In this document: piece after piece, positions 1,722 to 16,974 of the stretch
Layout of the letters: each line of letters begins with the position of its first letter
How positions within the stretch are numbered: the first letter of the stretch is position 1
From: a virus
Taxonomy: Duplodnaviria > Caudoviricetes
IMG/VR virus record: IMGVR_UViG_3300026907_000064
Coordinates: 1 to 57,918 of that record
Strand: one strand, 5' to 3'
DNA: 57,918 bases
Program-made: the position numbers and the translations under genes
The notes under the pieces: generated by a model
What the model was told of the DNA's origin: nothing
The model's database searches: none
What the model saw: the letters and a program-made list of their open reading frames with translations, nothing else

Positions 1722-2834
1722 ATGCAAACAGCAGCAGAGTATTTCCCGCCAGGGGATTTTCTCAAAGAGGAGCTCGAAGCTCGAGGGTGGACACAAGTTG
1801 AGTTGGCCGAAATTATGGGCCGCCCTACCCGCCTGATAAATGAAATCATCGCTGCCAAGAAATCCATCACCCCCGAGACGGCTGTGCAGCTCGGCGAGGC
1901 GTTGGGGTCTGACGCTCGGTTCTGGATGAATCTGGAGAGCCAGTATCAGCTCTCAAAAGTGACGAAGCCCGACAATCTGATTGCACGCCGTGCGCAACTC
2001 TATGCTCGGTTTCCTGTCCGCGATATGGTCAAGCGTGGCTGGGTCCAGCTGAGCGAGAACATCGAAGTACTGGAACAGCAGTTCAAGACTTTTTTCGGTA
2101 TCGATCGCCTCGACCAAGATCCTCACTTCTTGCACGCTGCAAAAAAGACAGATGAGACGAAGGAAGCCAGCATTCAACAATTGGCTTGGTTGTTCCGCGC
2201 GCGAACGATCGCAGCCAATCAGGTGAGCAAGAAGTTTAAGAAAGAGCTTCTCCAAGCGGCGCTACCCAGGGTACATGCGTTGTTATCCGCGCCCGAAGAG
2301 GTCCGTCATGCCCCGGGAATCTTGGCCGATTGTGGTGTCCGACTCGTTTTCGTCGAAGCACTTCCTGGCTCGAAAATTGACGGTGCGTGCTTTTGGCTCA
2401 CACCGACACAGCCGGCGATTGCGATGTCGCTCCGCTTTGATCGAATAGACAACTTCTGGTTTGTGCTTCGACACGAGCTAGAGCATGTGCTGCAGGGTCA
2501 TGGCAAAGATGACGGCTACATCTTGGATGTGGATATGGATGGCGACACTGCAGACCAAGTCATTGCCGAAGAGCGTATGGCGAATGAAGCTGCAGCCGAA
2601 TTTTGCGTGCCTAAGACGGAAATGGACAACTTCGTGGCTCGTGTCGCACCGTACTTTAGCGACGAACGCGTGACGCTGTTTGCCAAGCGCTTGGAAGTTC
2701 ATCCGGGAATCGTAGCAGGCCAATTGCGAAAGCGGCTGAACCGATACGACAGATGGAGCAAGTATCTGGCGAAAGTCAGGCACATTGCGATTCAGAGTGC
2801 TCCAACCGACGGTTGGGGAAATGTTGACTATTAA
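1722..2834 (+). CDS. higA: HigA-family HTH antitoxin fused to an ImmA/IrrE (M78) zinc metallopeptidase
   Basis: PPGDFLKEELEARGWTQVELAEIMGR...ITPETAVQL...FWMNLESQY HigA signature. FWFVLRHELEHVL (HExxH) and EERMANEAAAEF. GGAG RBS before ATG 1722. Confidence 0.9.
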   Translation: MQTAAEYFPPGDFLKEELEARGWTQVELAEIMGRPTRLINEIIAAKKSITPETAVQLGEALGSDARFWMNLESQYQLSKVTKPDNLIARRAQLYARFPVRDMVKRGWVQLSENIEVLEQQFKTFFGIDRLDQDPHFLHAAKKTDETKEASIQQLAWLFRARTIAANQVSKKFKKELLQAALPRVHALLSAPEEVRHAPGILADCGVRLVFVEALPGSKIDGACFWLTPTQPAIAMSLRFDRIDNFWFVLRHELEHVLQGHGKDDGYILDVDMDGDTADQVIAEERMANEAAAEFCVPKTEMDNFVARVAPYFSDERVTLFAKRLEVHPGIVAGQLRKRLNRYDRWSKYLAKVRHIAIQSAPTDGWGNVDY

Positions 2835-2852
2835 TCGGAGGATGATGAACCT

Positions 2853-3338
2853 ATGTCGGCATACTCAAATGCAGTGAAAGACTACATCGAGCGCTATCAG
2901 CGCGAGAAAGGTGATTCCAGCGGTCTCGTTGATACACATGAACTCGCGGCCTGGGCTTACGAGAACGGCCTGCACAAGCCGAACGCCAAGACCATCATTG
3001 ACGCCATTGCGGCTGATATCGCTCAGGTCTTTCGCGAAGAATACAGAACGGATCGTCACGGGAGGCGCTATCGCGCGAAACACGCCACAACAAAAAAGGT
3101 AGGCAACAAGACGCTCTCGCTTTGGGCCGACCTTGACGATCCCAATGCCCCGCATGAGCATTTCCAGCGCTCGTTCGCTCAGCGGCGCCTTCAGATTGTG
3201 GGCGATTGCTTCCAGCTCAAGACTGACGCCGATGTGTACAACGACCAACGCCAGCCCGAAACGCCCGTCCAAATTGTCCTGGACTTTTCCTACGACGTGG
3301 AAGAACTTCAGCTCCGCAACAACAAGCGGGCTGCATAA
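2853..3338 (+). CDS. Hypothetical 161-aa protein, third gene of the HigB/HigA-peptidase operon (candidate toxin/effector)
   Basis: GGAGGA RBS, co-oriented and 18 nt after the peptidase stop, with a globular charged sequence. Confidence 0.8.
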   Translation: MSAYSNAVKDYIERYQREKGDSSGLVDTHELAAWAYENGLHKPNAKTIIDAIAADIAQVFREEYRTDRHGRRYRAKHATTKKVGNKTLSLWADLDDPNAPHEHFQRSFAQRRLQIVGDCFQLKTDADVYNDQRQPETPVQIVLDFSYDVEELQLRNNKRAA

Positions 3339-3508
3339 CGAAAAGGGCCTCAAAGCGCGCCAACGCCTGAGGCCCTGAATAAATGTGAAGCCCAACGGTC
3401 CCCTGGGCAACGCACCTTGACTGCAAAGTACAAATTGCATCGTAGTCGGTCGCCAAGCCGGCTGTCAATGTCAAGGCGGAAGTTGGGACGGCGTTTAGGA
3501 GCATACCT

Positions 3509-3631
3509 ATGCAGCCGAACGACACCGAAGAGGTCATCTATCGGATGACTATCAAGGTCAAGGGACGCGTCATCCGTCGTCCCAACGGCCAACCGTTCCG
3601 GATTGTGTTGCGCAAGAAAAAAGCCAACTAA
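3509..3631 (+). CDS. Small basic 40-aa protein MQPNDTEEVIYRMTIKVKGRVIRRPNGQPFRIVLRKKKAN
   Basis: Not in the ORF track. AGGAG RBS at 3497-3501, and a terminator follows directly. Confidence 0.65.
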   Translation: MQPNDTEEVIYRMTIKVKGRVIRRPNGQPFRIVLRKKKAN

Positions 3632-3643
3632 CAAGCCGGTATC

Positions 3644-3681
3644 AAAAAGCCCCTGGCCTTCGGCCGGGGGCTTCTTGTTTT
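3644..3681. terminator. Intrinsic terminator (bidirectional)
   Basis: AAAAAGCCCCTGGCC-TTCG-GCCGGGGGCTTCTTGTTTT. Confidence 0.8.
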
Positions 3682-3947
3682 CGTGCCTTAGCTTGGCCAC
3701 GCCGCCACAGTAGCCTGGTGCCGCGCCGCGCACACGCCGTACGCGACCAGCACGCTGTCCTGCAGCCAGACCTGCCATTCGTCATAGTTGGCAGGATCCT
3801 GAGGCGGATCAGAAATGTCCGAGCAAGGCGCAGCCAGGGCGCTATCGAGCGGCACGGAGCTTACCGCACACCGCCGCGGTCGATGGCATATGCTACATTT
3901 CCCCCGCCCTCAGGCTCCTTCGCCGGCGACTTTGGGTACTACGCTCC

Positions 3948-3974
3948 AGCCCCCTCACGGGTCGGGGCGTTTTT
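3948..3974 (+). terminator. Probable intrinsic terminator, possibly the 3' end of a small RNA
   Basis: GCCCCC-TCACGGGTC-GGGGCGTTTTT. An extended -10 TGcTACATT lies at 3891-3899. Confidence 0.45.
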
Positions 3975-4135
3975 GCTTCTGGGCCGAAGCAATTGGTATC
4001 GGCTCAGGAGATGCGCCGCAAGCTGCACAAGGGGATGGCGCCGCGCTAGGCTAGGTAGTACCGCCACACTATTGCAAGCCCGCCCCCCAAGCGCAATACT
4101 GACCTTCCCGTGTTCTTCTTTTGGAGGGTATAGCA

Positions 4136-4372
4136 ATGCAACGCGACGACATCCGAAAGTTGGGCGTCAAGGCTGCCCGCGAAGGCTTGACTCTGTGGGA
4201 TTGCCCCTACTATTGCGCCGCGGCCATGCCCGGGCACACAGGTGAACCGATCACGGCATGGCGCGAGAAGGTCGAAGCTTGGGAAGCTGGGTGGTTAGCG
4301 GAAATGAAATGTTTGAGACCCCCGGGAAAGACGAGGTTCGCACCGCTGTCAGTTGAGCGGCGCCCCAACTGA
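4136..4372 (+). CDS. CrpP-related small protein
   Basis: IRKLGVKAAREGLTLWDCPY...WEAGW matches the CrpP-like G..AAR.G....DCPY...W..G pattern. GGAGG RBS. Confidence 0.75.
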   Translation: MQRDDIRKLGVKAAREGLTLWDCPYYCAAAMPGHTGEPITAWREKVEAWEAGWLAEMKCLRPPGKTRFAPLSVERRPN

Positions 4373-5341: not shown

Positions 5342-5368
5342 AATGAAAAGCGCGCCCGAAGGCGCGCG
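5342..5368 (-). terminator. Terminator-like hairpin between the giant gene and the endolysin
   Basis: Minus strand GCGCGCC-TTCG-GGCGCGC-TTTTCATT. Confidence 0.65.
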
Positions 5369-5393: not shown

Positions 5394-8300
5394 TTAGCGG
5401 CGCGCGGCGCGGGCGTGCTCGTCGGCCAGCATGGCCAGGCGCCCGCGCGCGCGGTAAAGCAGGTCCAGCTGCGCTCGCTTCTCCTCGGCCGGCAGGCTGG
5501 AACGCTCCAGGGCCTTGATCCTGGTGTTCACCTCACGCAGCTGGCCGTCGGCAGTCTTGAACAGCGAGCGCAGCCGCAGCTGATCATCCCCCGCCAGCGC
5601 GCGCGCCCGCTCCAGGTCGCCCAGCTCGCGCGCCTGCGAGTACGCCGCGTACACCTGATTGATTTCGCGCTGCTCGTCGTAGAACCGCTGGATGTACTTG
5701 CTGCTGCGCGGGTCTGCTTCCTTGACGAAGTCGCCCAGCACGAACCAGTTGTCCATGCGGCCGAGGTCGCGGCGGGGATTCTCCGGCAGTCCCGACAGCG
5801 GCCTGGCCAGGTAGTCCGACGCGTTCAGCGCCTGAGTGCCCAGCCAGCCGAAGTAGCCGCGCACCAGGTGCTCCAGGCGCTGCGGTGACAGGCCCAGGGT
5901 GCGGCCCAGCGCTACAGCGCCGGCAGACGTCGACGCAGTGAAGCGATCGCCAGCAGGCAGGCGTTGCTGGCCAACGCTGTCGATGTCACGCTCCCGGAAC
6001 GAGTCATAGTTGAACGCGGCTTCCATAGCAGGCTTGACGATCTGCGGCACCGGGTTCATAGACAGCTGCTCGCTCAATATCGCGCCCACCGTGCGCCCGA
6101 AGTCGCCCAGGCGGAAGTCGTCACCGCCGAACGCCAGCTCGGTGCCGCGCTCGACGACACTGCCCAGCGCGCCGATTTCGAAGGGCTTGGGAATGTAGAC
6201 CAGCTGATTGGTGCCGGGCAGCTTCGTAATCCAGAACGAATTCCGGGCCCAGTCTGGCAGCTGCTTGTAATCGTCGTCATCCTTCATGCCCAGGTAAAGC
6301 AGCGCCGACGCCATAGCGACAGCGCCCGACACCACCGCGAAGCGTGCGGGATCCGCGGCCGCGCCACGCCCCAGCTTGTACATGCCCTGCAGCCTGGCGT
6401 TGAAGAACGGCACCACCTGGGAAAGCAGGCGCACCGCGGAGAACGTGCCGCCGGCGGTGAAGTCCATGAGGTCGCGCGCGGCGTAGCTCGCCTCCAGATG
6501 GCTGCGGCCGGCATTGCGGGCCTGCTGATAGATGGCGGCGCGGTTGATCGTCTCCGCCCGGTCGCCAGTTTCCTGGTACCAATCGAAAGCCCGGCGCATC
6601 GCCCGGCCCATGCCGGCCGGGGACGTGATCACGTCGTCGGGATGGGCGCCCAGCTCGTCAACCAGCCGTTTCACATTGCGGGCATTGCCGTCGTTGAAGG
6701 ATCCAAACCGGACGGCTCCGCCACCCGCCATCAGGCGCCGCCAGGTGTCGCTCTCCGCCCCGGTCGCTCGCCACCCCTCGACCAGGTTGCGCAACGGGTT
6801 AGTGGACAGGTTGCTGTCGATGGACATGGCCTGGATGGTGTCGCGCAGCAAGTTGCGCACGCGGAAGGTCGGGCTGATCGTCACGCCGACGGTCAGCGCG
6901 TGCTTGAACTTGCGCGCAGCCTTGGTGAACGGGTCATTGGAGCCCACGTAGTGCAGCGACGTCAGCGCATTCATCACCAGGGGATCATCCACCAGGTAGT
7001 GGCGCTCCTGCCCGTCGAACATCGCCCGCACGCTGCCGCGCTCCGCCTGGCGCACGCGCGAGGCGATACCCAACTTTTCCGCCTCTTGCAGCGCGCCCTG
7101 CGCGGCCAGGTTCTTCATGCTGGCCGAAAGGAGGTGCGACCAGTTGGAAACGGTGTTCGCCACCAGGTCGCCCAGCTTGTCGGTGCCACCCTTGAGGCGC
7201 TTGTAGGCATGCTGGCCAACCAGGCCGCCGATCTGGCCCGGCCCCATGGTCCCAGTCGCATCGTCCTCCATGACGCGGTAGAACGGGACATAGAACTCGC
7301 TTTCCCAGAGCGCGCGCGAACTGGGATCGACCAGTCCAGCCTGCTGCGCAACGTCCATTACGGAGCGCTGCAGCTCGTTGAACTGGCGCAGGGCTTCGCG
7401 GTAGACGGTAGAGCGCTCGCGACCGTCGGCCATTCTGCCGTCGGCCAGGCGCATGCCGGCCGCGATATCGTCGGGCGTGAAGAGACGTTCGCGCGAGGCG
7501 GCTTCTGCCTTGGCGCCCGGCCAGCGCGCCGCTTCCGCCCGCGCCGCGGCCTCGTCGGCAAAGCGTTCCGTGACGCCATTCTCGAATCGAACTTGCCATT
7601 CCGCTGCCAGCCGCTGCGCGCGGTTGGCAGCTATCCAGGCCATGAAGTGATCGTGCTCGCCATTCAGGCCGGCCAGGATCTCGGCCAGGCCAGCGCCGCC
7701 GGCCGTGTCCAGCGCGCCATCCTGCAGCCTGACCGCGCCATGCCGAACAAGATACTCCGCAGCACCGTCGGCCCCCTTCGACAGGCGAGCCTGCATGTAA
7801 GCCGTGGCGCTGATCCCCTTGAGCGGTGCGAACTGATCGAAAATGCCCTGCACCAGCTTGGCCTGCCAGCGGTCGGACACCTTCGCCATGCGTTCCTTGA
7901 TGGGTTCCTGTTCGGCCCAGGCTCCGATCTTGCCCAGGAACTTGTTGCGCTGGCGCCGCTCGATGTCCGACAGGGTTTCACCCGGCCGGGCGATCTTGGC
8001 GCCGCGCTTGGGCTCGCGAGCGGCGGCCGGCCCGGCAGGTGGCGCCCCGGCCGTCGAGGCGCCGGCGGCGCGCGATTCCCTGGGGCCAGAAGTAGAAAGC
8101 CCCGCACTTGGCGGGGCTTCGTTGTTGGCGTCGCGGCCTAGTGGGCGCGCGGCTTCTTCAGGAGCTCGCCTGCCAGCTTCATCGACTCGCGCATGTCTTT
8201 CAGCAAGGATTCGGTCTCGGACGGCGTCAGGCGCGTCATGCTTGGCGAGATAACGCCCTTCTGATTCCGTGAGCGCGTCGAAGCCGCGGCCAGTGGCTTC

Positions 8301-11300
8301 GCGGAAGGATTGTTCGACATCGCCATAGAGGGCTCGCAGTTCAGAAAGGGTTTCGGGGGACAGCCGCAATGTAGCGCTGTAGCGCTTGCCAGTCAACGCG
8401 AACGACCCGACAACCCGGCCCCCGTTTTGCTGGATGTGCGAGGCCAGCGCCGCCAGCGTGCCGCCTTGCGTCAGCGTGTCGTCCACCAGGAAATAGGCCT
8501 TGCCCGGCTGTACGGCGCCGTCGAACTCGGGCTGCTGAAAGATGCGGCCCAGGCCATCGAGCGTGGTGCGCTTGGCCTTCACCGACTGGTAGATACCGGC
8601 ATCCACGGGCAGGCCAAGCCGCTGACCCAGCGCCGTCGCCGCTACCGCCGGGATCTTGTTGTGGCCGGTGGCTTCAACGGCCAGCACGGGGACAATTGCC
8701 GGACGCTCGCCGCGGATCGCCTCCCGCACCTGCGCCACGGCCTCATCCGAAAGAACATCCTGAATCAAGCGCACGGCGGCCGCCGTGTCGCCCGCCTTTG
8801 CGGCGGCGTGGTCCGGGTGTTTACCGGCCGCGCCCAGCCGCTGCCCTATCACCACCGGAGGCAGCTCGACGGGTTCCTGGCCGCGGCGCGATTCAGCAGC
8901 GAGCGATGCCGCGGCCTCCTGCATGCCAGCGCTCACGCGCGCGGCGGGCGCACGCTGCAGGAACCGGCCGGCATCGATCACCATCTGCTTGATGTCGGTG
9001 TTGTTGAGCTGGAGGTTCAGACCGAGTCGGCGCAGCGCGGCTCGGATTTTTCCGTACAGGCGTTCCAGGAACAGCGGGCGCTTCCCCTGTTCCGCCATCC
9101 GCGCCAGCACTTCGCGCGCGCGGTTCTCGGCCGAATAGTCCGGATAGCGCGCGGTCACTGCCTCGAAGGTGGCGTAATGCTGATGCTCCGGGCCGGCGTC
9201 GCGCGGGATCTGCGCCCCATCCGGCGCCCTGGCCAGGCGGCGCACGTCGGCCAGCACGTCGCGGAATCGGTCGCCCAGCACGGCCTCCACGCCAAAGTGG
9301 CCCACAACCTCATGCGCCAGCACCTGCTGCAGGCGCTCCGCCGTCGGCAGGTTCTCGGCCACCAGGTAGATGCGGCCCCCGTCGCCCGCCGGATAGTACG
9401 CGCCCTCGGCCAGCGGCGACGGCTTCGCCCCTTCGGGGATCTGGTCGACGGTTTCGACGACAGACACGCGCAGGCCCGCCGCGCCCGGCAGCTTGCTCAT
9501 GAACTCCTCGGCCTGCCGCCGCGCCGCAGCGACATCCACGCCGGGCATGCGGCTGCCGCGGCTCTCCAGGGCAATCCGGCCGCCCTCGCGCGGCACCTGC
9601 TCGACCGTCTGGAAAAATCGATCGAAGGCGGCGCGAACCGGCGCAATCTCGGCGGCGGTCGGGTACGGATAGGACTGCTCGTCCCGGAACGCCTTTTCCG
9701 TGACGACGTTGGCCAGGTAGTCGTTGGCTGCGCCCTGGTCGGCCAGCTTGGCGATCACGTAGCTTTCAAACGCCCGTGCGGACATTTCCCGGCCCGTCGT
9801 CCAGTAGTCTTTCGTCCGGCGGGCATCCAGCTTGCTGGCGCGCTCGCGCATGCCGATCAGGCCGATCGTCTGTTTCAGGGCGCCGAAGGCCTCGGCCATG
9901 GCTGGCCGGATCCCTGTGGCTTCCCGCCCCGACTCGGACGCATAGGCGATCGGCGCACCGCCGCGCCGCGAAAAGTAGTTGTCCAGGCCGTGCCACCATT
10001 CATGAGCGAGCGAGCCCGCGCCTCGCGTCTTGGTCAGGTTGATCACGACCTGGACGGGCTCATAGTGCGCCAGCGCGGCGTTCTTGCCGCCGCTGCCGCG
10101 CGCACCGAAGGCCAGGCCCAACTCGCCGTTGAGCGATAGCGCGCGCGGCGGCACGCCAATGACGCCGGCCAGATCCATCAGGGCGTCATAGGCTTCATTC
10201 AGGTCCGCCTGCCGGCGGCTGCCCTCGACGTAGTTGCCGAACTGCACACCACGAAAGCCGAAGGAGTCGGCAAACTGCTCGGCCGACACGTCGCCGCCGT
10301 CTCGATGGTCGACGCCGACGCGCGGCGAATTCGTCTCGCGGCGGTGGGCGGGCGTCTCTTTGATCCTCTCCAACTGCTGGGCCAGGGCGTCCTTGTTCTC
10401 GGCCAGGAAAGCGCGGGCGGCCTTTACATCGTCGAAGCGCTGCAGGTCGACATGCACGCGCCCCACCTTCTTGCCGATGTAGAAGCCCGGCATGCGCGGC
10501 CGTGAGTAGATGTCGAATCGGACTTCGCGCCCCGGCGCGGCGGTCCCGTCTTCCTCCGCCCAGGCACGCTCGAATGCCTCGATCGCTGCCGCGGGCGTGG
10601 TGCCATGCCCCATGATGTCGGGCCAGTTACCAAAACCCGACGCGGCCTTGCGCTCCACGGTCCAGATGGTGCGCGGGCTATCGAACGTCTCGCCGTTGAA
10701 CACGCTATAGCTGCCGGAGCGCAGCGACACGCCGCGCAACGAGCGCTCATGCCCCACAGCCTCATACAGCTGCGCGCGGCCGTATACCTTGCGCAGTTCG
10801 GGTGATTTTTCCAGACCCGCGCGCACGTCGGCCGCCTTGAGCGTGCCGTCCAGCATCGAATTGGAGAAGTCACGCAGGGTCTGGACCTGGTCGGCCCAGC
10901 CCTTCACCTTCCAGCTGCTGCGCGGCTTGGCCGGGATCTCGTCGCGGCTGGCGTGGGCCACCGCCACCAGGAACGCATCCGCGCCGTCCTCGATGAGCTT
11001 GGCATAGTTGGGTTCTGGCCAAGTTTCGGACAGCGAGTGCTTGGCGACCGGCAGGGTTTCTGCCAGGCGCATGCGCTCGGTGTACTGCTCGGCGTAGTGT
11101 TTCCGTGCCCCGTGCAGAGTCTCGCCGAAATCTTCAATGCGCCCGGCGGACGGTGCGGCCGGCTCCGCAGCCGTGGGCGCTGCATCGGCCTCTGCAACTG
11201 CGGCCGGCGCCAACTCCATCTGGCCGCGCGCCGCGCCCTGATCGGCGGCTCGATCGCTGCCCGTCAGTACGAAATCATCGCGCGCCGCATCGGCGGCGGC

Positions 11301-14300
11301 GCGCTGGTCGGCCTCTCGGGCCTGAGTGGCGGCGCCCTGCTCCGCGACAGCCGCCGCCTCGGCTGCATTACGCAGCCCGTCGGCCGTCGGGTTCTCAAGC
11401 GTCAGCGCTTGCGGGCCGCCCGCGCGATCACCTCCTGCGCCTGGCCCATCGCCTCGCGCTCCCGGTTGGCCTGCACCGCGCGAAGGATTGCCAGAGTCCC
11501 GTCGGCCATACGCCGCTGCTTGGGACTTAATGTCGGCCTCGTAGAGTTCGGCGTCGCCGTCGGCTCGGATTGAGGCGCGCTCGATGATGGCTTCTTGGGT
11601 TGGGACATCCGTAATTCCTTGTTCGCTCAGGTAGACGGCCGCGTCGAACTGCGCGGCCAGCTCCAGCGCTGTCGTACCGGTGGGCATGGCGTCGATGACG
11701 CCAAAAAGGTCCTCGGCCAGCTTCTGCTTGTCTTTCGTATCGCTGAACCGCTCGGCTTGGCGCTCAGCATACGCGCGGCGGGCAGCCTCGTCCATCTGGT
11801 CCAGGCTGTATACCGCCTCGCCCTCCATAGCCTCGCGGACTCGATCCATCGCGGTGTTGGAAAGGTCGACCGTGTCGCCGTCCATGGGCAGGTACCCGGC
11901 TTGCTGCATCGCCTCGACCAGCATATCGGCGTCCATCCCGCCCTTGCGGAACAGGCCGGGCGCGCGGCGGTTGGCCAGGTGCGCGCGATCGCCGTAGATA
12001 TCGGCCGCCAGCTCCGGCCGAATGCCTCCAGCCTTTCGCACCATCTGCAGGAAATCACGGCGCGCGGTCTGGCCGAACTCGGCCGCGGACGGCTGGGCCT
12101 CGACACGGGGGGGTTGACCAGTTCGCGGGCGGGCGACGAATCCACCGTCCACCGGCACGGCGTCGGCATTGCCATGCGCCGTCGCCGCGCGCTGCGCGGC
12201 CCCGCGCGTCAGGAACGGCCGGCCGCCCTTGGCGGTCACGTCCGGCTCTGACACCAGGGTGCCAAGCCCAGACTCGGCCGCCGGCAGCGTGGTGTCACCG
12301 TCCGCCAGCCAGCGTTTGAACGTGGGCACGTCCATCTGGGTAACCTTGCCCATGCCGCGCCAGTCCGGCGTGTAGCTGTCGCGATAGGCGCGCTCGGCTT
12401 CCTCTCGCGTGTCGTAGCCCAGCATCACCTTGGATTCATCAAAGCCGCGGTGCGCGGGGTCCACCTGGTCGATGACGAACACCGGCCCGCTGAAATCCGG
12501 CGCAGTGCCTGGACGGACGAACACGTCGACCTGATCGCCATCGGCGCCTTCGGTGCGGCGGATGTAGCCATAGTGCCCCGCCATGCGGTTTGCCCACTGG
12601 GTTCCGTCCGGCGACGTGCCGCGGCGCTCCGAGCCCTCCGGATTCTCGATCGACAGTTCCAGGCCGGCCACGCGCGTGCGCCCGACCTTGTAGTTGCCGG
12701 CCGCCTTCTGCGCTTCCGAGGGCTCCGGCAGGTTGTTGCTGGGCGAGGTGGCTGCTTCGTGTGCGGCGGTGTCGGTCGCCGCGCCAGGATGGCGCGCGCC
12801 CGCGGCGGCGACGTCTGGCGTCATGCCCATGGCTGCCTGGCGCGCCAGCTCGGCATCGCGCTGACCTGACGTAGCCGCCACGCCCTGCCCGTCCACCTGG
12901 TAGACCGGCGCAGGCAAAGCCGCACGGGCCGGCGTGCCCTTGAGCGCGGCATCGATCCCCTCCTGCATCTGCGCCGTGGTGTACGGCTGCATGCCGTTCT
13001 CGTGCTGGATGATGGCAGCGGTCAGCCGGGCCAGAACGGTCGGGTTGCTCAGGTCCAGCCTGTCGTCGGGCTGCACCCCCACCGCACGGCTCACCTGCTG
13101 CACGTAGGCGCCCGTCTCGTTTTCCGAGTCCGGCGCCCAGCGGCCGATGATCCCCTGCACGGTATCCAGGCCATGCCGGCGCTGGTAGGTCAAGAGATTG
13201 ACGGCCAGACCACGGATGCCGTCCTCCGGCGCCTTGAAGGTGGCAAAGCGCGGATCGTTGCCCTCGACCTCGCCATCGAACCCGACGCCCTTCTCGATGT
13301 TGCCGGGGTTGTTGTTTCGGATCCCACGCGGCGCGTTTGCCGGCATCCGCCAGGACTCGCGGGCGGTAAAGCCCTCGCCAGCGGCGTAGCCCTCAGGCGC
13401 CGGCAAGGCCTGCCGCTCGATGGGCGCGTCCAGCACAGGAAAGGCCTGCGGCCCCTCAAGCGCGGCCGGCCCATCCATCGCCTCGCGCAGAGCGTTGCCA
13501 GGCAGCGGGTCGGCGGCCAACTCCGACAGACGCACAAAGCGCCCGCGGCCATCCGCCGTACGGATCCGCGCCAACGGCTCCCCGCCGGGCCGGGCAGTCG
13601 CGGCGTTTCGCTCCACCCCCAGGAACTCGACAGGCAGCTCGCGGCCATTCTGGCGCAGGTATACCTGCTGCCCGCGCGTGAAGGAATCGGACGCCGAGGT
13701 TTGCTCCTGCTCCGCTTCCGAAGACTGGCCCGCCGGGCGTTGCGCCTTGGCCAGCTCGTCCGCAGGGACATACGAATCCTGGCCGTTCACCCGCACCTTG
13801 GCATAGCGTCGCCCATCTGCGCCCGCCTCCTGCTCCAGGAGGACGAATTCAACTGGCACATCATGGTCCGCGTTCTTCCACAGAACCTGTTCACCGGGCT
13901 CATAGGTCGGCGCCGCCGGCTCCTGCTCCGATGGGGTAGCGGCCTGGGCAGAGTCCGCCATATCCCGCCCAGGCCGAACGATGAAGCCATTTTCGTGGCG
14001 CATGACCTGCGCGCCCTCACCCAGCTCTGCGGCGCGCTGGCGCGCGGCGCTGGCCGTCACGAACGGCTTGCCGCTGGCGTGCATCACGTCACCGGCTTCC
14101 AAGCTGGGGGCCGTCGGCGTACCCCGGCTGCGTACACCATCTGCCGCGCCGTGCACGGCGCCCGGCCCCATGCCCGCGACGAAGCCGAGCGCGGCGTTGC
14201 CAAATGATCCCGCGAGCGGGTCCAGCTCCATGCCAGCGCCGGCGTTGATGCCCTTCTGTGTGGCGACGCCCTCGCCCACTTCCTGGACGGCTTCCTCGGT

Positions 14301-15221
14301 GCCGGCCAGGCCTGCGCGCCCGAGGGTCTGCGCAACCACGCCGCGATCGCCCAAGACTCGGCCCGCCGGCGAGAGAATGCGGCCCGTCGCAGCACCACCC
14401 AACGCGGACACGGGCACTGTCCGCACAAACGCAGCTTCCTCGGCCTCTGCTCGAACACGCGCGCGGGCCTGCTCCGGCGTCGCGCCCTTCGCGACTAGGT
14501 CGCGGTAGGCGGACGAAGCCGCGGCCAGCTGTTCATCATCCATCCCGTCGATGGTTTCGCGCGCCTGCTCGATCGCGTTGCCCCCCCCCTGGGCACCACC
14601 CGCCGCGGCGCCGGCCGCCATCCGCGCACCGATACCCAACGGGCCGGCCGCGGCGGCCGCCGCGATGGGAAGCGCGCTGCTGCCCAAGGCATTCATGCCC
14701 TGCAGTAACAGGCCCGAAGCGGAGGGATCGCGGCCGAAGGTCCAGGTGTCAGGTTTGTCCAGATCGCCAGCGGGCTGCGAGTCCGCCTCGCGGCGCTTCG
14801 CTTCGTCCGTCCGAGAGTCCAGGACACGCTCACCCAGGCGATGCGTGGTATCCGCGGCCCCTTCGAACGGGTTGGTCGGCACATCCAGGCCCGCGTCAAA
14901 GGCTTGGTTGAGCGCCGTGACGCCCACGCGGCCCAGGCCTTCTGCCACCTTCCCGACGCCTCGCACGGCGCTGCCCGCTCCCTTGATGGCGCCACCGGCC
15001 AGCGTCTTGGGGAAGTCGACAAACTCTATGCCGCCAGTCTCCTGTTTAGGACGCGCGAAATCTGCGACCCGAAAGGAGAATGCCGCCGGCGCGCCCGTGG
15101 TACCGGCAGGTGCCTTGGCGTCCGAGAATTGCACGTCCAGGTCAGCTCGCACGCCGTCACGACGTGCGGCAACCTCGTCCGCGAACTCGATTCCGTCCAA
15201 CAGGTTATCAAAGTTGGCCAT
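5394..15221 (-). CDS. Giant (~3,275 aa) polyvalent virion/ejection protein
   Basis: Motifs in order: RGIRNNNPGNI (lysozyme-like, ~13330-12950); GNYKVG...SIENPEGS.R...HYGYI..T.GADGDQVDVFV (InPase-like, ~12720-12300); IEDFGE.L.GARK (LPD5-like); FRGVQFGN...GSLAHEWWH.LD (LPD1-like); LAHEVVGH (zincin); LVDDTLTQGGTL (PRTase); PKPFEIG (LPD38-like). It is the last gene of the virion cluster. Confidence 0.9.
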   Translation of the reverse strand: MANFDNLLDGIEFADEVAARRDGVRADLDVQFSDAKAPAGTTGAPAAFSFRVADFARPKQETGGIEFVDFPKTLAGGAIKGAGSAVRGVGKVAEGLGRVGVTALNQAFDAGLDVPTNPFEGAADTTHRLGERVLDSRTDEAKRREADSQPAGDLDKPDTWTFGRDPSASGLLLQGMNALGSSALPIAAAAAAGPLGIGARMAAGAAAGGAQGGGNAIEQARETIDGMDDEQLAAASSAYRDLVAKGATPEQARARVRAEAEEAAFVRTVPVSALGGAATGRILSPAGRVLGDRGVVAQTLGRAGLAGTEEAVQEVGEGVATQKGINAGAGMELDPLAGSFGNAALGFVAGMGPGAVHGAADGVRSRGTPTAPSLEAGDVMHASGKPFVTASAARQRAAELGEGAQVMRHENGFIVRPGRDMADSAQAATPSEQEPAAPTYEPGEQVLWKNADHDVPVEFVLLEQEAGADGRRYAKVRVNGQDSYVPADELAKAQRPAGQSSEAEQEQTSASDSFTRGQQVYLRQNGRELPVEFLGVERNAATARPGGEPLARIRTADGRGRFVRLSELAADPLPGNALREAMDGPAALEGPQAFPVLDAPIERQALPAPEGYAAGEGFTARESWRMPANAPRGIRNNNPGNIEKGVGFDGEVEGNDPRFATFKAPEDGIRGLAVNLLTYQRRHGLDTVQGIIGRWAPDSENETGAYVQQVSRAVGVQPDDRLDLSNPTVLARLTAAIIQHENGMQPYTTAQMQEGIDAALKGTPARAALPAPVYQVDGQGVAATSGQRDAELARQAAMGMTPDVAAAGARHPGAATDTAAHEAATSPSNNLPEPSEAQKAAGNYKVGRTRVAGLELSIENPEGSERRGTSPDGTQWANRMAGHYGYIRRTEGADGDQVDVFVRPGTAPDFSGPVFVIDQVDPAHRGFDESKVMLGYDTREEAERAYRDSYTPDWRGMGKVTQMDVPTFKRWLADGDTTLPAAESGLGTLVSEPDVTAKGGRPFLTRGAAQRAATAHGNADAVPVDGGFVARPRTGQPPRVEAQPSAAEFGQTARRDFLQMVRKAGGIRPELAADIYGDRAHLANRRAPGLFRKGGMDADMLVEAMQQAGYLPMDGDTVDLSNTAMDRVREAMEGEAVYSLDQMDEAARRAYAERQAERFSDTKDKQKLAEDLFGVIDAMPTGTTALELAAQFDAAVYLSEQGITDVPTQEAIIERASIRADGDAELYEADIKSQAAAYGRRDSGNPSRGAGQPGARGDGPGAGGDRAGGPQALTLENPTADGLRNAAEAAAVAEQGAATQAREADQRAAADAARDDFVLTGSDRAADQGAARGQMELAPAAVAEADAAPTAAEPAAPSAGRIEDFGETLHGARKHYAEQYTERMRLAETLPVAKHSLSETWPEPNYAKLIEDGADAFLVAVAHASRDEIPAKPRSSWKVKGWADQVQTLRDFSNSMLDGTLKAADVRAGLEKSPELRKVYGRAQLYEAVGHERSLRGVSLRSGSYSVFNGETFDSPRTIWTVERKAASGFGNWPDIMGHGTTPAAAIEAFERAWAEEDGTAAPGREVRFDIYSRPRMPGFYIGKKVGRVHVDLQRFDDVKAARAFLAENKDALAQQLERIKETPAHRRETNSPRVGVDHRDGGDVSAEQFADSFGFRGVQFGNYVEGSRRQADLNEAYDALMDLAGVIGVPPRALSLNGELGLAFGARGSGGKNAALAHYEPVQVVINLTKTRGAGSLAHEWWHGLDNYFSRRGGAPIAYASESGREATGIRPAMAEAFGALKQTIGLIGMRERASKLDARRTKDYWTTGREMSARAFESYVIAKLADQGAANDYLANVVTEKAFRDEQSYPYPTAAEIAPVRAAFDRFFQTVEQVPREGGRIALESRGSRMPGVDVAAARRQAEEFMSKLPGAAGLRVSVVETVDQIPEGAKPSPLAEGAYYPAGDGGRIYLVAENLPTAERLQQVLAHEVVGHFGVEAVLGDRFRDVLADVRRLARAPDGAQIPRDAGPEHQHYATFEAVTARYPDYSAENRAREVLARMAEQGKRPLFLERLYGKIRAALRRLGLNLQLNNTDIKQMVIDAGRFLQRAPAARVSAGMQEAAASLAAESRRGQEPVELPPVVIGQRLGAAGKHPDHAAAKAGDTAAAVRLIQDVLSDEAVAQVREAIRGERPAIVPVLAVEATGHNKIPAVAATALGQRLGLPVDAGIYQSVKAKRTTLDGLGRIFQQPEFDGAVQPGKAYFLVDDTLTQGGTLAALASHIQQNGGRVVGSFALTGKRYSATLRLSPETLSELRALYGDVEQSFREATGRGFDALTESEGRYLAKHDAPDAVRDRILAERHARVDEAGRRAPEEAARPLGRDANNEAPPSAGLSTSGPRESRAAGASTAGAPPAGPAAAREPKRGAKIARPGETLSDIERRQRNKFLGKIGAWAEQEPIKERMAKVSDRWQAKLVQGIFDQFAPLKGISATAYMQARLSKGADGAAEYLVRHGAVRLQDGALDTAGGAGLAEILAGLNGEHDHFMAWIAANRAQRLAAEWQVRFENGVTERFADEAAARAEAARWPGAKAEAASRERLFTPDDIAAGMRLADGRMADGRERSTVYREALRQFNELQRSVMDVAQQAGLVDPSSRALWESEFYVPFYRVMEDDATGTMGPGQIGGLVGQHAYKRLKGGTDKLGDLVANTVSNWSHLLSASMKNLAAQGALQEAEKLGIASRVRQAERGSVRAMFDGQERHYLVDDPLVMNALTSLHYVGSNDPFTKAARKFKHALTVGVTISPTFRVRNLLRDTIQAMSIDSNLSTNPLRNLVEGWRATGAESDTWRRLMAGGGAVRFGSFNDGNARNVKRLVDELGAHPDDVITSPAGMGRAMRRAFDWYQETGDRAETINRAAIYQQARNAGRSHLEASYAARDLMDFTAGGTFSAVRLLSQVVPFFNARLQGMYKLGRGAAADPARFAVVSGAVAMASALLYLGMKDDDDYKQLPDWARNSFWITKLPGTNQLVYIPKPFEIGALGSVVERGTELAFGGDDFRLGDFGRTVGAILSEQLSMNPVPQIVKPAMEAAFNYDSFRERDIDSVGQQRLPAGDRFTASTSAGAVALGRTLGLSPQRLEHLVRGYFGWLGTQALNASDYLARPLSGLPENPRRDLGRMDNWFVLGDFVKEADPRSSKYIQRFYDEQREINQVYAAYSQARELGDLERARALAGDDQLRLRSLFKTADGQLREVNTRIKALERSSLPAEEKRAQLDLLYRARGRLAMLADEHARAARR
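8088..8119 (-). terminator. Intrinsic terminator inside the giant gene, 18 nt after the nested ORF stop
   Basis: Minus strand AAGCCCCGC-CAAGT-GCGGGGCTT-TCTACTTCT, a perfect 9-bp stem. Confidence 0.7.
8138..8326 (-). CDS. Nested +1-frame small protein (62 aa; alternative starts at 8320 and 8239) overprinted on the PRTase module
   Basis: Own promoter upstream and terminator downstream. Amphipathic helix LTPSETESLLKDMRESMKLAGELLKK. SD is weak. Confidence 0.65.
   Translation of the reverse strand: MAMSNNPSAKPLAAASTRSRNQKGVISPSMTRLTPSETESLLKDMRESMKLAGELLKKPRAH
8368..8396 (-). promoter_or_regulatory. Intragenic sigma70 promoter driving the nested ORF
   Basis: Minus strand TTGACT (8396-8391), 17-nt spacer, TACATT (8373-8368). 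Confidence 0.72.
11402..11608 (-). CDS. Second nested +1-frame small protein (68 aa) within the giant gene
   Basis: AAGGA SD 7 nt before ATG. Helical C-half LSPKQRRMADGTLAILRAVQANREREAMGQAQEVIARAARKR. Possible promoter TGGACG-17-TATGCT at 11794-11766. Confidence 0.55.
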   Translation of the reverse strand: MSQPKKPSSSAPQSEPTATPNSTRPTLSPKQRRMADGTLAILRAVQANREREAMGQAQEVIARAARKR

Positions 15222-16974
15222 CTGCACCCTCTACGTTGTTGCGCCCCATCGCGGCGCGCGTGATTTCTGATCCTTCCGTGGCCCGCGCCCAACGCTCCGC
15301 GGCTGCTTGCTCCGCGGCTCTGGCCAGCTCGACGTCGCGCTCCGCCTGTTGCAGGCGTGCGGCATGGGCGGCGCGTGCCTCCTCACCTGCCTTGAGGCCC
15401 GGAGGCTTGGTCCGCAGCTGGCGCACTACCACCTCGGCTTGGCGCAGGTCGGTACGCGCGGCATCCAGCTGCGCACCTTCCGCGCTCTCCGCCGCCGGCG
15501 AAACTGCGGTCGTCGATGGGCGGGACGGCGGGGTTTGGCGAGCCGCGGCGTCCGGCGCTTTCGCGGCAGCTGCTGGCGCCGTCTGGGCCTCGTTCGTGGC
15601 GGCGCCGGTCGAGGCCGGAACGGTCTGCAGCCGCGTCCGGATCTGGTCCTGAACTTCCTTAGGCACGACTGATACGGGTAGCCGCACCAATCGGCCCTCG
15701 TGCTCGACACCGAAGCCGAACTGCCGATCCCCCAGCTTGATGGGCACGATCGAAGCCGTGCCTTCCTGGACTTGCTGCGACAGATCGGCCAGGTTGCCCG
15801 GCGTCAGCACTTCGCCGGCGGGCGTACCGGCATTCAGCCGATTGATGTTTTCACCCACGCTGATGATCCCGCTCACACGTTTGCGCTCGTCCTCGCCCAG
15901 GGCTTCCAGACTGTCCACCTTGTTGATGCGCATGACGTGATTGGCGAAATCCTTGTCGGAAGTGACCATCTTCGGCTTGCCCGCTTCGCTTCCTTGAGCG
16001 CTAGCCCGCATGCCACCCTTGCCATCAGGCATGTACAGCGTCTGATCCTTGCCCAGGATTCGGGGTTTGCTAGCCTCCTCGTCCTTGCGCAGCTGACTGG
16101 CCAGCAGCGCCTCCCGGCGCTTTTCCTCCGCCTGATACAGCAGCTTCGCCTGCTGCGCCACCATGGCCTGCTGGGCCTTCGGATCGCTGATGCTCTGCAC
16201 GAAGCTCTGCAGCATGTGTTCGGTAATGGGCTGCTGCACCCGCTTTCCCGTGGCGGTGTCTACGCCGACGAAGTCGTACAGCGGAGCGCCGCCGGCCTGC
16301 TCCGCTCGCCGATTGATAGACGTCACCTCGATGCCGCCCGGCATAAAGCGGTTCACGAAGGGCACAAAGGAGTTCGGGTCACCGGTCAACTGGTATCGGC
16401 TCTGCGCAGTCGCGAACGCCTGTTCCCTGTGCTGTCCGACGAATCGCTCGCGGTCGGTGAGCAGTTCCATCGCACGGCCTGGCTCTCCCAACTCCAGAGC
16501 CTTGCGGTAGGCCCGCGTGAGACCGTCGGCGACCTGGCCGAAGTCCCCACCGCCGAGGAAGTCACCGACGTCCGGGCTTTTTTTTTCCGCAGCGGCACCA
16601 AATCGGGAGGCACCTTGCCGCACAGCGGTGCCGTTCCCAAACTGCGCGCCGGGCGCGAAGTCGCCCAGGTTGACGGTGGTGGGGTCCGGCCCCTGGCTCA
16701 AGATGGGTATGCCCGTGGGGTTGATTGGCACCGGCTGCAAGCCGCCCACGTCACCCGACGCCGGACCGCCCGCCACAGCCTCGGGAACCTGGATCCGCTC
16801 AAGACCAGCCTGCGCCGGTCGCTGCGAGCCATCGCCTGCCAACGCGTCGGCAATCTGCTTGTCAGCCTCTCGTGCCCGCCGCTCCTCAGTAGCCCTGTTG
16901 AAGGCATTCCCGATAGCCATTCCGTTGCGCAACCCGTCGGCGAGGCCGCCCGCAAAACTTCCAATTCCAGCCAT
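15208..16974 (-). CDS. Internal virion/ejection protein (588 aa)
   Basis: N-terminal GSFAGGLADG Gly/Ala pattern, helical, located between two other ejection genes. Confidence 0.7.
   Translation of the reverse strand: MAGIGSFAGGLADGLRNGMAIGNAFNRATEERRAREADKQIADALAGDGSQRPAQAGLERIQVPEAVAGGPASGDVGGLQPVPINPTGIPILSQGPDPTTVNLGDFAPGAQFGNGTAVRQGASRFGAAAEKKSPDVGDFLGGGDFGQVADGLTRAYRKALELGEPGRAMELLTDRERFVGQHREQAFATAQSRYQLTGDPNSFVPFVNRFMPGGIEVTSINRRAEQAGGAPLYDFVGVDTATGKRVQQPITEHMLQSFVQSISDPKAQQAMVAQQAKLLYQAEEKRREALLASQLRKDEEASKPRILGKDQTLYMPDGKGGMRASAQGSEAGKPKMVTSDKDFANHVMRINKVDSLEALGEDERKRVSGIISVGENINRLNAGTPAGEVLTPGNLADLSQQVQEGTASIVPIKLGDRQFGFGVEHEGRLVRLPVSVVPKEVQDQIRTRLQTVPASTGAATNEAQTAPAAAAKAPDAAARQTPPSRPSTTAVSPAAESAEGAQLDAARTDLRQAEVVVRQLRTKPPGLKAGEEARAAHAARLQQAERDVELARAAEQAAAERWARATEGSEITRAAMGRNNVEGADGQL

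Follow-up and report, generated by a model that had tools for sequence, protein, structure and literature searches.

We analysed a small gene that lies inside, and in a different reading frame from, a much larger gene of a virus of the Caudoviricetes (Duplodnaviria; IMG/VR record IMGVR_UViG_3300026907_000064). The window, by which we mean the whole 57.9-kb virus record (57,918 nucleotides), carries on its minus strand a giant gene (5394-15227) that was identified from the list of open reading frames (ORFs) and its translation, and that encodes a polyvalent protein of the virion or ejection type with a length of 3277 amino acids; its reading frame is called frame 0 here. The protein has Pfam matches to InPase, LPD5, LPD1 and LPD38, domains that mark the giant ORF as a phage polyvalent protein, and its gene is located downstream of tail-fibre and virion structural genes. 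A preliminary description of this locus had reported a promoter-like site, a 62-codon ORF in the +1 frame and a terminator-like hairpin, all on the minus strand within the giant gene, overlying a phosphoribosyltransferase (PRTase)-like domain and bracketed by a 9-bp direct repeat. All of these elements are present where it had placed them.

The PRTase-fold domain spans positions 8184-8900 (minus strand), or approximately residues 2110-2348 of the giant protein. A PRTase-type motif, LVDDTLTQGGTL, is read in frame 0 of the gene, and a pair of aspartates occupies domain residues 140-141. A profile of the domain matched adenine PRTases in the PDB over the loop that binds phosphoribosyl pyrophosphate (PRPP) with an E value of 1.2e-7. 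When an AlphaFold model of the domain (predicted local distance difference test score, pLDDT, of 91) was used as a Foldseek query, orotate and adenine PRTases led the results (E ~1e-5), 69 PDB matches were obtained at E <= 0.001, and the best superposition was with ComF of H. pylori (root-mean-square deviation 3.3 A over 133 columns). In 28 sequences the PRPP-binding loop, with its acidic pair ahead of T.GGT, keeps D140, D141, G146 and T148 without exception. The PRTase-like nature claimed for this domain was therefore confirmed both by sequence similarity to PDB entries and by the modelled fold. As modelled, the domain is of the type I PRTase fold and fits the ComF-like group of invasive elements, with phosphoribosyl transfer as its predicted activity. 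Two models in PADLOC were also weakly matched, PsyrT (7e-6) and ShosT (1e-4). The PRTase group of polyvalent proteins has been described as ComF-like and as occurring in MuF fusions, giant polyvalent proteins and solo forms, and the main text of that description terms its role "enigmatic" (Iyer et al. 2017, PMC5512222).

The overprinted small gene (8138-8326, minus strand; ORF list) comprises 62 codons in the +1 frame and a TAG stop (8140-8138), and overlaps the 3' end of the PRTase domain from domain codon 192 onward. Its ATG at 8326 is formed by a frame-0 TAT and the G that follows. The predicted product has a loosely constrained N-terminal half rich in Ser, Thr and Pro, and a C-terminal half made up of a core, RLTPSETESLL (residues 32-42; 8201-8233, minus strand; PDAVRDRIL in frame 0), and an amphipathic helix. 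Upstream on the same strand are a -35-like hexamer, TTGACT (8391-8396), which includes the rare Leu codon TTG of the frame-0 peptide ALTGK, and 17 nt from it a -10-like hexamer, TACATT (8368-8373), the whole site having 9/12 matches. A weak Shine-Dalgarno-like triplet, GAG (8333-8335, minus strand), is located 6 nt before the ATG and derives from a rare CGA Arg codon of frame 0. A hairpin (8096-8120, minus strand) begins 17-18 nt after the TAG; it has 10 pairs, with arms at 8120-8111 and 8105-8096 and a loop of five nucleotides (8110-8106), and the same DNA encodes the frame-0 linker EAPPSAGL. An interrupted T-rich tail, CTACTTCTGG (8086-8095, minus strand), follows on its 3' side.

To compare this locus with its relatives, we used 15 loci fetched with the PRTase domain and 65 fetched with the tail of a distant homologue. 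These relatives are 37-96% identical in the domain and have a GC content of 54-71%; two of them, L014 and L052, are one contig. Both the window and 80/80 fetched loci have an open +1 frame across the corresponding stretch (L073, which falls outside the search pattern, was checked by eye), and the core of the peptide in relatives reads (R/M)LT.SE(I/T)ESL(R/L). The frame is likewise open in the GenBank records of two cultured phages, Moraxella phage Mcat8 and Burkholderia phage vB_HM795, and the small gene is present on every PRTase-domain locus examined (80/80 plus these two phages). In Mcat8, which has a GC content of 42%, the open stretch measures 105 codons (P = 4e-4) and reaches 35 codons beyond the stop of the host gene. 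With independence among sequences assumed, the chance of joint openness is 1e-22 when calculated from stop density (20 representatives) and 1e-16 when computed by redrawing synonymous codons (17 representatives). Real sequences contain the motif L..[SA]E..[SRQ]L in 17/17 cases, and synonymous redraws in at most 0.26%.

In a scan of synonymous sites of frame 0 that covered 6.5 kb (2149 windows), the top peak fell at 8246-8187 (z = 25.2, standard deviation 5.1, 13 sequences), and the same peak had a z of 17.7 with nine more distant sequences. Synonymous conservation in frame 0 is raised from approximately 8420 to 8100. The peak arises because codon choice is fixed at Arg, Glu and Leu codons of the core region: the Arg of the frame-0 peptide RDRI is the rare CGA in 69/69 sequences (7% background), the next frame-0 Arg is CGA in 55 and AGA in 5 of 67, Glu is GAA in 66/67 and Leu is CTC in 65/69. 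The G+C content of third codon positions in frame 0 reaches its lowest value in the giant gene, 0.42, at 8273-8100 (gene mean 0.817, standard deviation 0.083), and at this dip the GC of codon position 1, where the +1 frame has its wobble base, climbs to 0.85-0.90. The preliminary description had proposed testing homologues for an open +1 frame and for suppressed synonymous variation across it; the first was found in all 80 loci and both phages, and the second as the strongest peak in 6.5 kb, which falls on the small ORF.

The distribution of variation differs along the small protein. Among 28 diverse sequences, the core has three invariant residues (L33, E37 and L41) and two with at least 90% conservation (S36 and S40), and the entropy of the core at +1 codon positions 1, 2 and 3 is 0.68, 0.62 and 1.05 bits, highest at the +1 wobble. 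The N-terminal 30 residues vary most at the wobble position of frame 0. From this pattern we infer that the N-terminal half of the small protein is a passenger of the PRTase sequence and that selection acts on its C-terminal half. Beyond the core, frame 0 encodes a low-complexity linker, and the +1 frame keeps hydrophobic positions with changing residues (L/W/F at some, L/V/A/I at others).

Searches with the small protein gave little by way of family assignment. Pfam returned scattered single matches (best E value 0.0066) and none for the window peptide, PHROGs returned a best value of 0.0072 in 1/28 sequences, and NCBIfam and PADLOC returned 0 matches. A profile search of the PDB gave mitochondrial TFAM (E ~0.01) over a helical stretch, which we read as a chance match, and the top scores in the ESM Atlas were 0.86, to clusters of "hypothetical protein" below the 0.9 lead level. 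A profile search recovered 124 short database proteins, all of them hypothetical where named. The expectation that standard annotation would miss the gene was borne out, in that database gene callers report the peptide only sporadically and as hypothetical, and the Mcat8 record annotates its tail alone. In that record (L081, KR093632.1), a coding sequence annotated as "coat protein" (1954-3796) has the PRTase domain at its C-terminus, and the 39-aa "hypothetical protein" that follows it is only the tail of the small ORF, whose start is ~50 codons earlier inside the "coat protein" gene. Two homologues that look free-standing, P0239 and P0262, gave nothing in a tblastn search of 50,697 phage records, and a scan of viral contigs with P0257, representing low-GC forms of roughly 110 aa, found no relative.

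It could be argued that no protein is made at all, and that the constraint comes from DNA or RNA signals only or that the open frame is a by-product of high GC and frame-0 conservation. High-GC DNA does yield long alternative frames (P of 0.14-0.19 in the window), but the frame is also open in a phage of 42% GC and in all 80 loci. Although the N-terminal half of the ORF behaves as a frame-0 passenger, redrawn synonymous codons do not produce the motif, variation in the core peaks at the +1 wobble, and the helix keeps its hydrophobic positions with differing residues (L/W/F, I/V/A) where frame 0 is a low-complexity linker. The lack of a match in Pfam, PHROGs, PDB, NCBIfam and PADLOC would suit a non-coding explanation, as would RNA contigs that give no strand, level or ends; set against this, free-standing copies exist and a model of the small protein in complex with the PRTase domain, described below, passes its controls. 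We consider a non-coding origin of these patterns very improbable, and conclude from the aligned sequences that the +1 ORF is very likely a real protein-coding gene.

Other stretches of the giant gene also drew our attention in these comparisons. A second +1 ORF of 68 codons (11402-11608, minus strand) is located in a linker, with the peptide M.QP.KPSS...LSPKQ.RM.DGT.AIL...AARK. It is open with a similar peptide in 10/13 close sequences, the window included, and the other three are not alignable or are without the ORF. The third-position GC of frame 0 dips below 0.6 there from approximately codon 1224, and the synonymous z is only 5-7. Further frame-0 synonymous peaks are found at 7865-7889 and 5705-5735 (minus strand), with z values of 11.7 and 13.1 in 20-codon windows.

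The start of the small ORF is conserved in the alignments. The column aligned with the ATG reads TAT or CAT followed by G in 52/70 unique sequences, even though frame 0 alternates between Tyr and His at this position; the remaining sequences have ATG, GTG or TTG nearby, and some start is found upstream of the core in all loci. In several loci (L004, L005, L007, L013 and L041), +1 stops a few codons upstream of the ATG leave no earlier start for the ORF. These data bear on a different explanation, in which there is no independent gene and programmed +1 frameshifting yields a shortened polyvalent protein with the LTPSE helix as its C-terminus, immediately ahead of the hairpin. Such a product would be in keeping with a stop followed by a hairpin, which resembles a gene end, and among 150 listed database representatives two pass from frame 0 to the +1 peptide, namely P0027 (3060 aa), with the ending ...AKF-RP-LTPSEAESLRNEMRE..., and P0012 (215 aa), in which the frame changes earlier. 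These two may, however, be indels or assembly errors, and no shared slippery sequence was noticed before the core when the alignments were inspected by eye without a formal test. Frameshifting is also opposed by the presence of a +1 start codon in all loci, with stops shortly upstream in the five just named, by conserved TTGAC and start-region codons that lie upstream of any possible shift site, by Mcat8, in which the host protein ends normally while the small ORF continues, and by one locus (L083) in which the small gene is free-standing with its own Shine-Dalgarno sequence. We therefore regard a frameshift product as a highly unlikely source of the +1 conservation.

Upstream of the start, the Leu codon of ALTGK is TTG in 68/70 unique homologous sequences (13% background), a choice that preserves TTGAC, and all 70 share A and T at positions 2 and 6, respectively, of the -10-like hexamer. 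A fixed promoter criterion was passed at the site in 61/70 sequences, compared with 96/910,662 background positions (~1e-4 per position). The TTG choice and the A-rich wobble positions (AAA 40/47, GAA 44/45, CAA 27/27 and AAA 36/41) are free of forcing by frame 0. The Arg codon that yields the GAG triplet is CGA in 32/67 sequences (7% background), which is weak evidence, and leaders in other clades are A-rich or contain GGAG or AGGAGG. The promoter proposed in the preliminary description is thus retained, as a promoter-like site, in 61/70 homologues. On this sequence conservation, we think it likely that the small ORF has its own promoter.

For the hairpin, pairing is kept in 99.2% of cells in 13 clade sequences. 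Compensatory changes are found in two pairs, from G:C to U:A in L003 and L005 and from A:U to C:G in L007, where frame 0 changes from Leu to Arg, and the observed conservation values were attained by 1 to 9 of 500 shuffles. Hairpins of other sequence are located 11-19 nt past the stop in three other clades (L059/L062/L064, L067 and L060), and longer T runs occur in the relatives L013 and L067. The claim of a complete nested transcription unit stands for its ORF, as a conserved gene with a conserved promoter-like site and start, and, in the window's own clade, for a conserved terminator-like hairpin with equivalents in the three others; the hairpin is lacking in most other clades.

Several features near the hairpin were noted in their own right. 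The frame-0 linker motif (A/T)PPS(E/A)G(L/V)S.SG, which is the translation of the hairpin in this clade, occurs in many remote polyvalent proteins (P0004, P0007, P0028 twice, P0084, P0096, P0137 and others), and it may mark RNA hairpins at domain junctions generally. The codon at 8079-8081 (minus strand), after the hairpin, is AGG (Arg) in the window, CGA (Arg) in L004 and ATG in 11/13 clade members, where the peptide reads GPMESRAA. We considered this conserved ATG as the start of a separate downstream gene and ruled it out: the window and L004 have Arg, and none of the 16 close loci interrupts frame 0, their indels being in frame. A clean terminator (5350-5367, minus strand; GCGCGCC-TTCG-GGCGCGC followed by TTTTCATTTG) is located 27 nt past the stop of the giant gene and marks the end of the late operon.

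To ask how the two overlapping products relate, we modelled the small protein in complex with the PRTase domain. The interface score ipSAE was 0.90, 0.90 and 0.89 in three runs and 0.00 in all three controls; in a benchmark the mark was attained by 58/80 solved complexes and 2/110 mismatched pairs, counts that hold only roughly here because the alignments were our own and paired row by row. At least 83% of contacts agree between runs, and the pLDDT of the partner is 66-67. Peptide residues 26-60 contact domain residues 37-48, 71-75, 80-93, 99-111, 118-127 and 234-238, and these contacts flank the invariant residues E76, N81, Q105, R119 and F126. Almost all of them involve domain residues 5-127, whose codons lie outside the overlap; the interface can therefore not be explained by nucleotides that the two frames have in common. 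The co-folding suggested in the preliminary description therefore placed the peptide helix on the PRTase domain, as a prediction, with an ipSAE of 0.90 against 0.00 for the best control. We conclude from the model that the small protein probably binds the PRTase domain.

Copies of the small gene are also found away from a PRTase domain. In L083, a free-standing copy (3880-4170) with a GAGG Shine-Dalgarno sequence and a GTG start is located beside a P4-type primase-helicase gene, and its former frame 0 is broken by stops; the record, a 10.8-kb viral contig, is an element with terminal repeats and has no PRTase match. In L088, the peptide follows the MuF_C domain of a polyvalent protein with InPase and MuF_C, in a 42.5-kb record that is also without a PRTase match. 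Just upstream of the L083 copy, on the opposite strand, is a stretch ..VRPKGSNCPSVVHQNG.. that equals the N-terminal part of the nested ORF in L088, an arrangement that suggests an inversion or a shared recombination site. Such orphan copies are more readily explained by an inhibitor than by an obligate subunit.

Expression data consisted of assembled contigs from RNA libraries, which cannot show level, strand or ends. In metatranscriptome X4, one 211-nt contig covers 8130-8340 and none other falls in 7000-9600; contigs of X2 on the giant gene cover 7112-7263, 8154-8373 (with a strand-switch joint), 8411-8610 and 9317-9349.

The preliminary description had further viewed the PRTase module as a discrete cassette that is exchanged by recombination at flanking copies of a 9-bp direct repeat, GCGCGATTC. 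Both copies exist and are in frame. The downstream copy (8070-8078) supplies E-S-R codons on the minus strand, the upstream copy (8886-8894) encodes the same three residues on the N-terminal border of the PRTase domain, and neither belongs to the small unit. The module does appear to move, in that the PRTase domain and small ORF occupy widely differing positions in proteins whose lengths range from 240 to 6167 aa, and their neighbours vary by locus (another downstream domain in L006 and L014, another upstream domain in L088). One contig departs from the window at 8117, inside the hairpin: the 794-nt contig X5, from a run recorded as an RNA library, matches window positions 7520-8117 and continues into 200 nt of unrelated sequence, a divergence that, in a relative, puts the boundary between modules within the hairpin's 5' arm. 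This sole observed breakpoint is, however, away from any repeat, and the small ORF travels without the PRTase domain too (L088). The 9-mer occurs four times in the window against 1.9 expected, with 12/100 shuffles reaching four, and the downstream copy is kept as a DNA word in just 4/13 clade members, with synonymous changes elsewhere that retain the peptide ESR; at the upstream copy, ESR or DSR recurs in relatives. The 9-mer is, from these alignments, a protein motif and not a DNA repeat, and we abandon it as a cassette boundary. Modular exchange of the domain occurs, as far as the compared sequences indicate, but not at the 9-mers, and we give very little credence to a cassette exchanged through them.

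Taken together, these observations led us to a model in which the small gene is an anti-effector gene overprinted on its own target. The small gene would be transcribed from its own sigma-70-type promoter inside the PRTase codons (-35 at 8396-8391, -10 at 8373-8368) as an RNA of ~270 nt running from near 8361 to near 8090, and would be translated from its own ATG at 8326. Ribosomes on the small ORF would stop 17-18 nt before the hairpin, leaving it free to terminate the short transcript, which in this clade would end at 8120-8096; ribosomes in frame 0 would instead run through the hairpin, so that the full-length late protein could still be made. The helix of the small protein is predicted to dock beside the invariant residues, in a groove for which the N-terminal helix (37-48) and three loops (71-75, 99-111 and 118-127) of the PRTase domain provide the walls, and would keep the effector inactive in the producing cell. 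Expressed from a prophage or from orphan copies, the small protein may neutralise the same effector when it arrives with related phages. We judge that the small protein is an inhibitor or immunity protein of the PRTase effector with slightly less than even confidence. For the reading as a whole, namely a complete overprinted unit with a frame-dependent terminator, expressed by prophages and by satellites with orphan copies against the injected PRTase effector of superinfecting relatives, we estimate a probability of roughly 0.3.

Several observations weigh against this reading. Within the window alone, promoter, ORF, hairpin and 9-mer repeat are all at chance level: there is one promoter-like site in 11 kb where shuffles give 0.9, the 84 codons that separate two stops in the +1 frame would stay open with P ~0.19 by stop density and 0.14 given the frame-0 protein and codon usage, and the hairpin has a fold z of -1.86, with 12/200 shuffles equally good. 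Comparative evidence, as judged from the aligned relatives, raises the promoter, the ORF and the hairpin far above chance and does not raise the repeat. Within that evidence, kinship among the loci means that the joint probabilities of openness are overstated, the N-terminal half of the small protein appears from its variation to be a passenger with no purifying selection on its own frame, and conservation of the promoter-like site is partly forced by the frame-0 motif ALTGK.YSA(T/K)(L/I). The Shine-Dalgarno element of the window is only GAG. A terminator scan of the window did not call the hairpin, whose T run is interrupted, its covariation amounts to three cells in two pairs, and a hairpin within 100 nt of the stop is absent from most other clades. 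The complex model rests on our own row-paired alignments and is blind to inhibition versus activation, and one of the two PRTase-free records (L088, 42.5 kb) is only 71% complete. Finally, the predicted contacts miss the PRPP loop (138-148).

This last point would also suit a different role for a real overprinted gene, whose product might be a subunit, an activator, or a folding or packaging helper of the PRTase domain, or might act on a host target with a merely historical link to the PRTase. The evidence for the reality of the gene and for binding fits such roles equally, a helper could be needed for a giant protein made late and in large amounts, and harm by the PRTase domain is presumed from its weak likeness to the toxins ShosT and PsyrT. 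However, related PRTase domains are toxins with antidotes; ShosT, for example, is described as a toxin that couples PRTase and pyrophosphatase activities (PMC11961720). In addition, an own promoter and terminator within a late operon are the layout of an accessory gene and not that of a structural helper, and the PRTase-free copies in L083 and L088 are difficult to reconcile with an obligate subunit, although a role independent of the PRTase would account for them easily. We hold a non-inhibitory product to be a possible but rather unlikely alternative to the anti-effector reading.

Polyvalent proteins are a large class of virion-delivered, multi-domain effectors, and a small partner on every copy examined provides a first handle on their PRTase domain, as a probable regulator or inhibitor of it. 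The locus also indicates that a promoter-like site, a gene and a terminator-like hairpin can all overlie coding sequence and persist over long evolution. If the nested gene is what we propose, a layer of immunity would be hidden from gene callers in very many prophages. If it is an immunity factor, superinfection exclusion, satellites and injected effectors would be linked, and more hidden genes would be predicted at other domain junctions, the ORF at 11608-11402 of the giant gene being a second candidate.

A literature search found no description of the embedded gene. The PRTase domains of polyvalent proteins described by Iyer et al. are the same domain in the same contexts, with the same ComF-like affinity; the main text of that study, which cites polymorphic toxins, uses the words "overlapping", "frameshift" and "linker" 0 times and does not describe an embedded gene, its supplementary alignments (File S2) being outside the scope of this statement (PMC5512222). 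ShosT and PsyrT, the toxins of the ShosTA and PsyrTA defence systems, share with the domain studied here the PRTase fold and a weak profile similarity, and the PRTase-pyrophosphatase coupling of ShosT has a parallel in the InPase domain of the giant protein. ShosTA has been termed a type IV system in which ShosA binds DNA, a point of difference from the unit described here (PMC11961720). Further differences are that the antidotes ShosA and PsyrA are different and larger proteins, whereas the small protein here matches no PADLOC model, and that the match of our PRTase domain to ShosT and PsyrT is far under any family threshold.

In effector-immunity pairs, such as those of polymorphic toxin and contact-dependent inhibition systems, and in toxin-antitoxin pairs, the immunity gene is normally downstream and separate. 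The unit described here resembles them in having a small cognate protein at the effector domain, predicted binding between the two, and orphan copies without the effector. It differs in that the small gene overlaps the codons of the effector itself, and toxicity of the domain and its neutralisation are here putative. The Rz/Rz1 spanin genes of phage lambda provide a precedent for the overlap, since there too a larger gene fully contains a small +1-frame gene, and the two products are believed to bind each other, as is predicted here. Unlike the small gene in our window, Rz1 is without its own promoter or terminator and acts in lysis; the gene described here is located in the gene for a 3277-aa polyvalent protein, has promoter-like and terminator-like signals, and has an enzyme domain as its partner. 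Morons are autonomous promoter-gene-terminator units inside phage late operons, located between genes. Our unit likewise consists of a sigma-70-type promoter-like site, a small accessory gene and a hairpin in a late structural operon, and its expression would be expected to be independent of late transcription. In contrast to morons, it lies wholly inside a 3277-aa ORF, such that its promoter-like site, coding sequence and terminator-like hairpin double as codons for the host protein. The small unit would work like a moron but falls outside the classical definition of one by its position.

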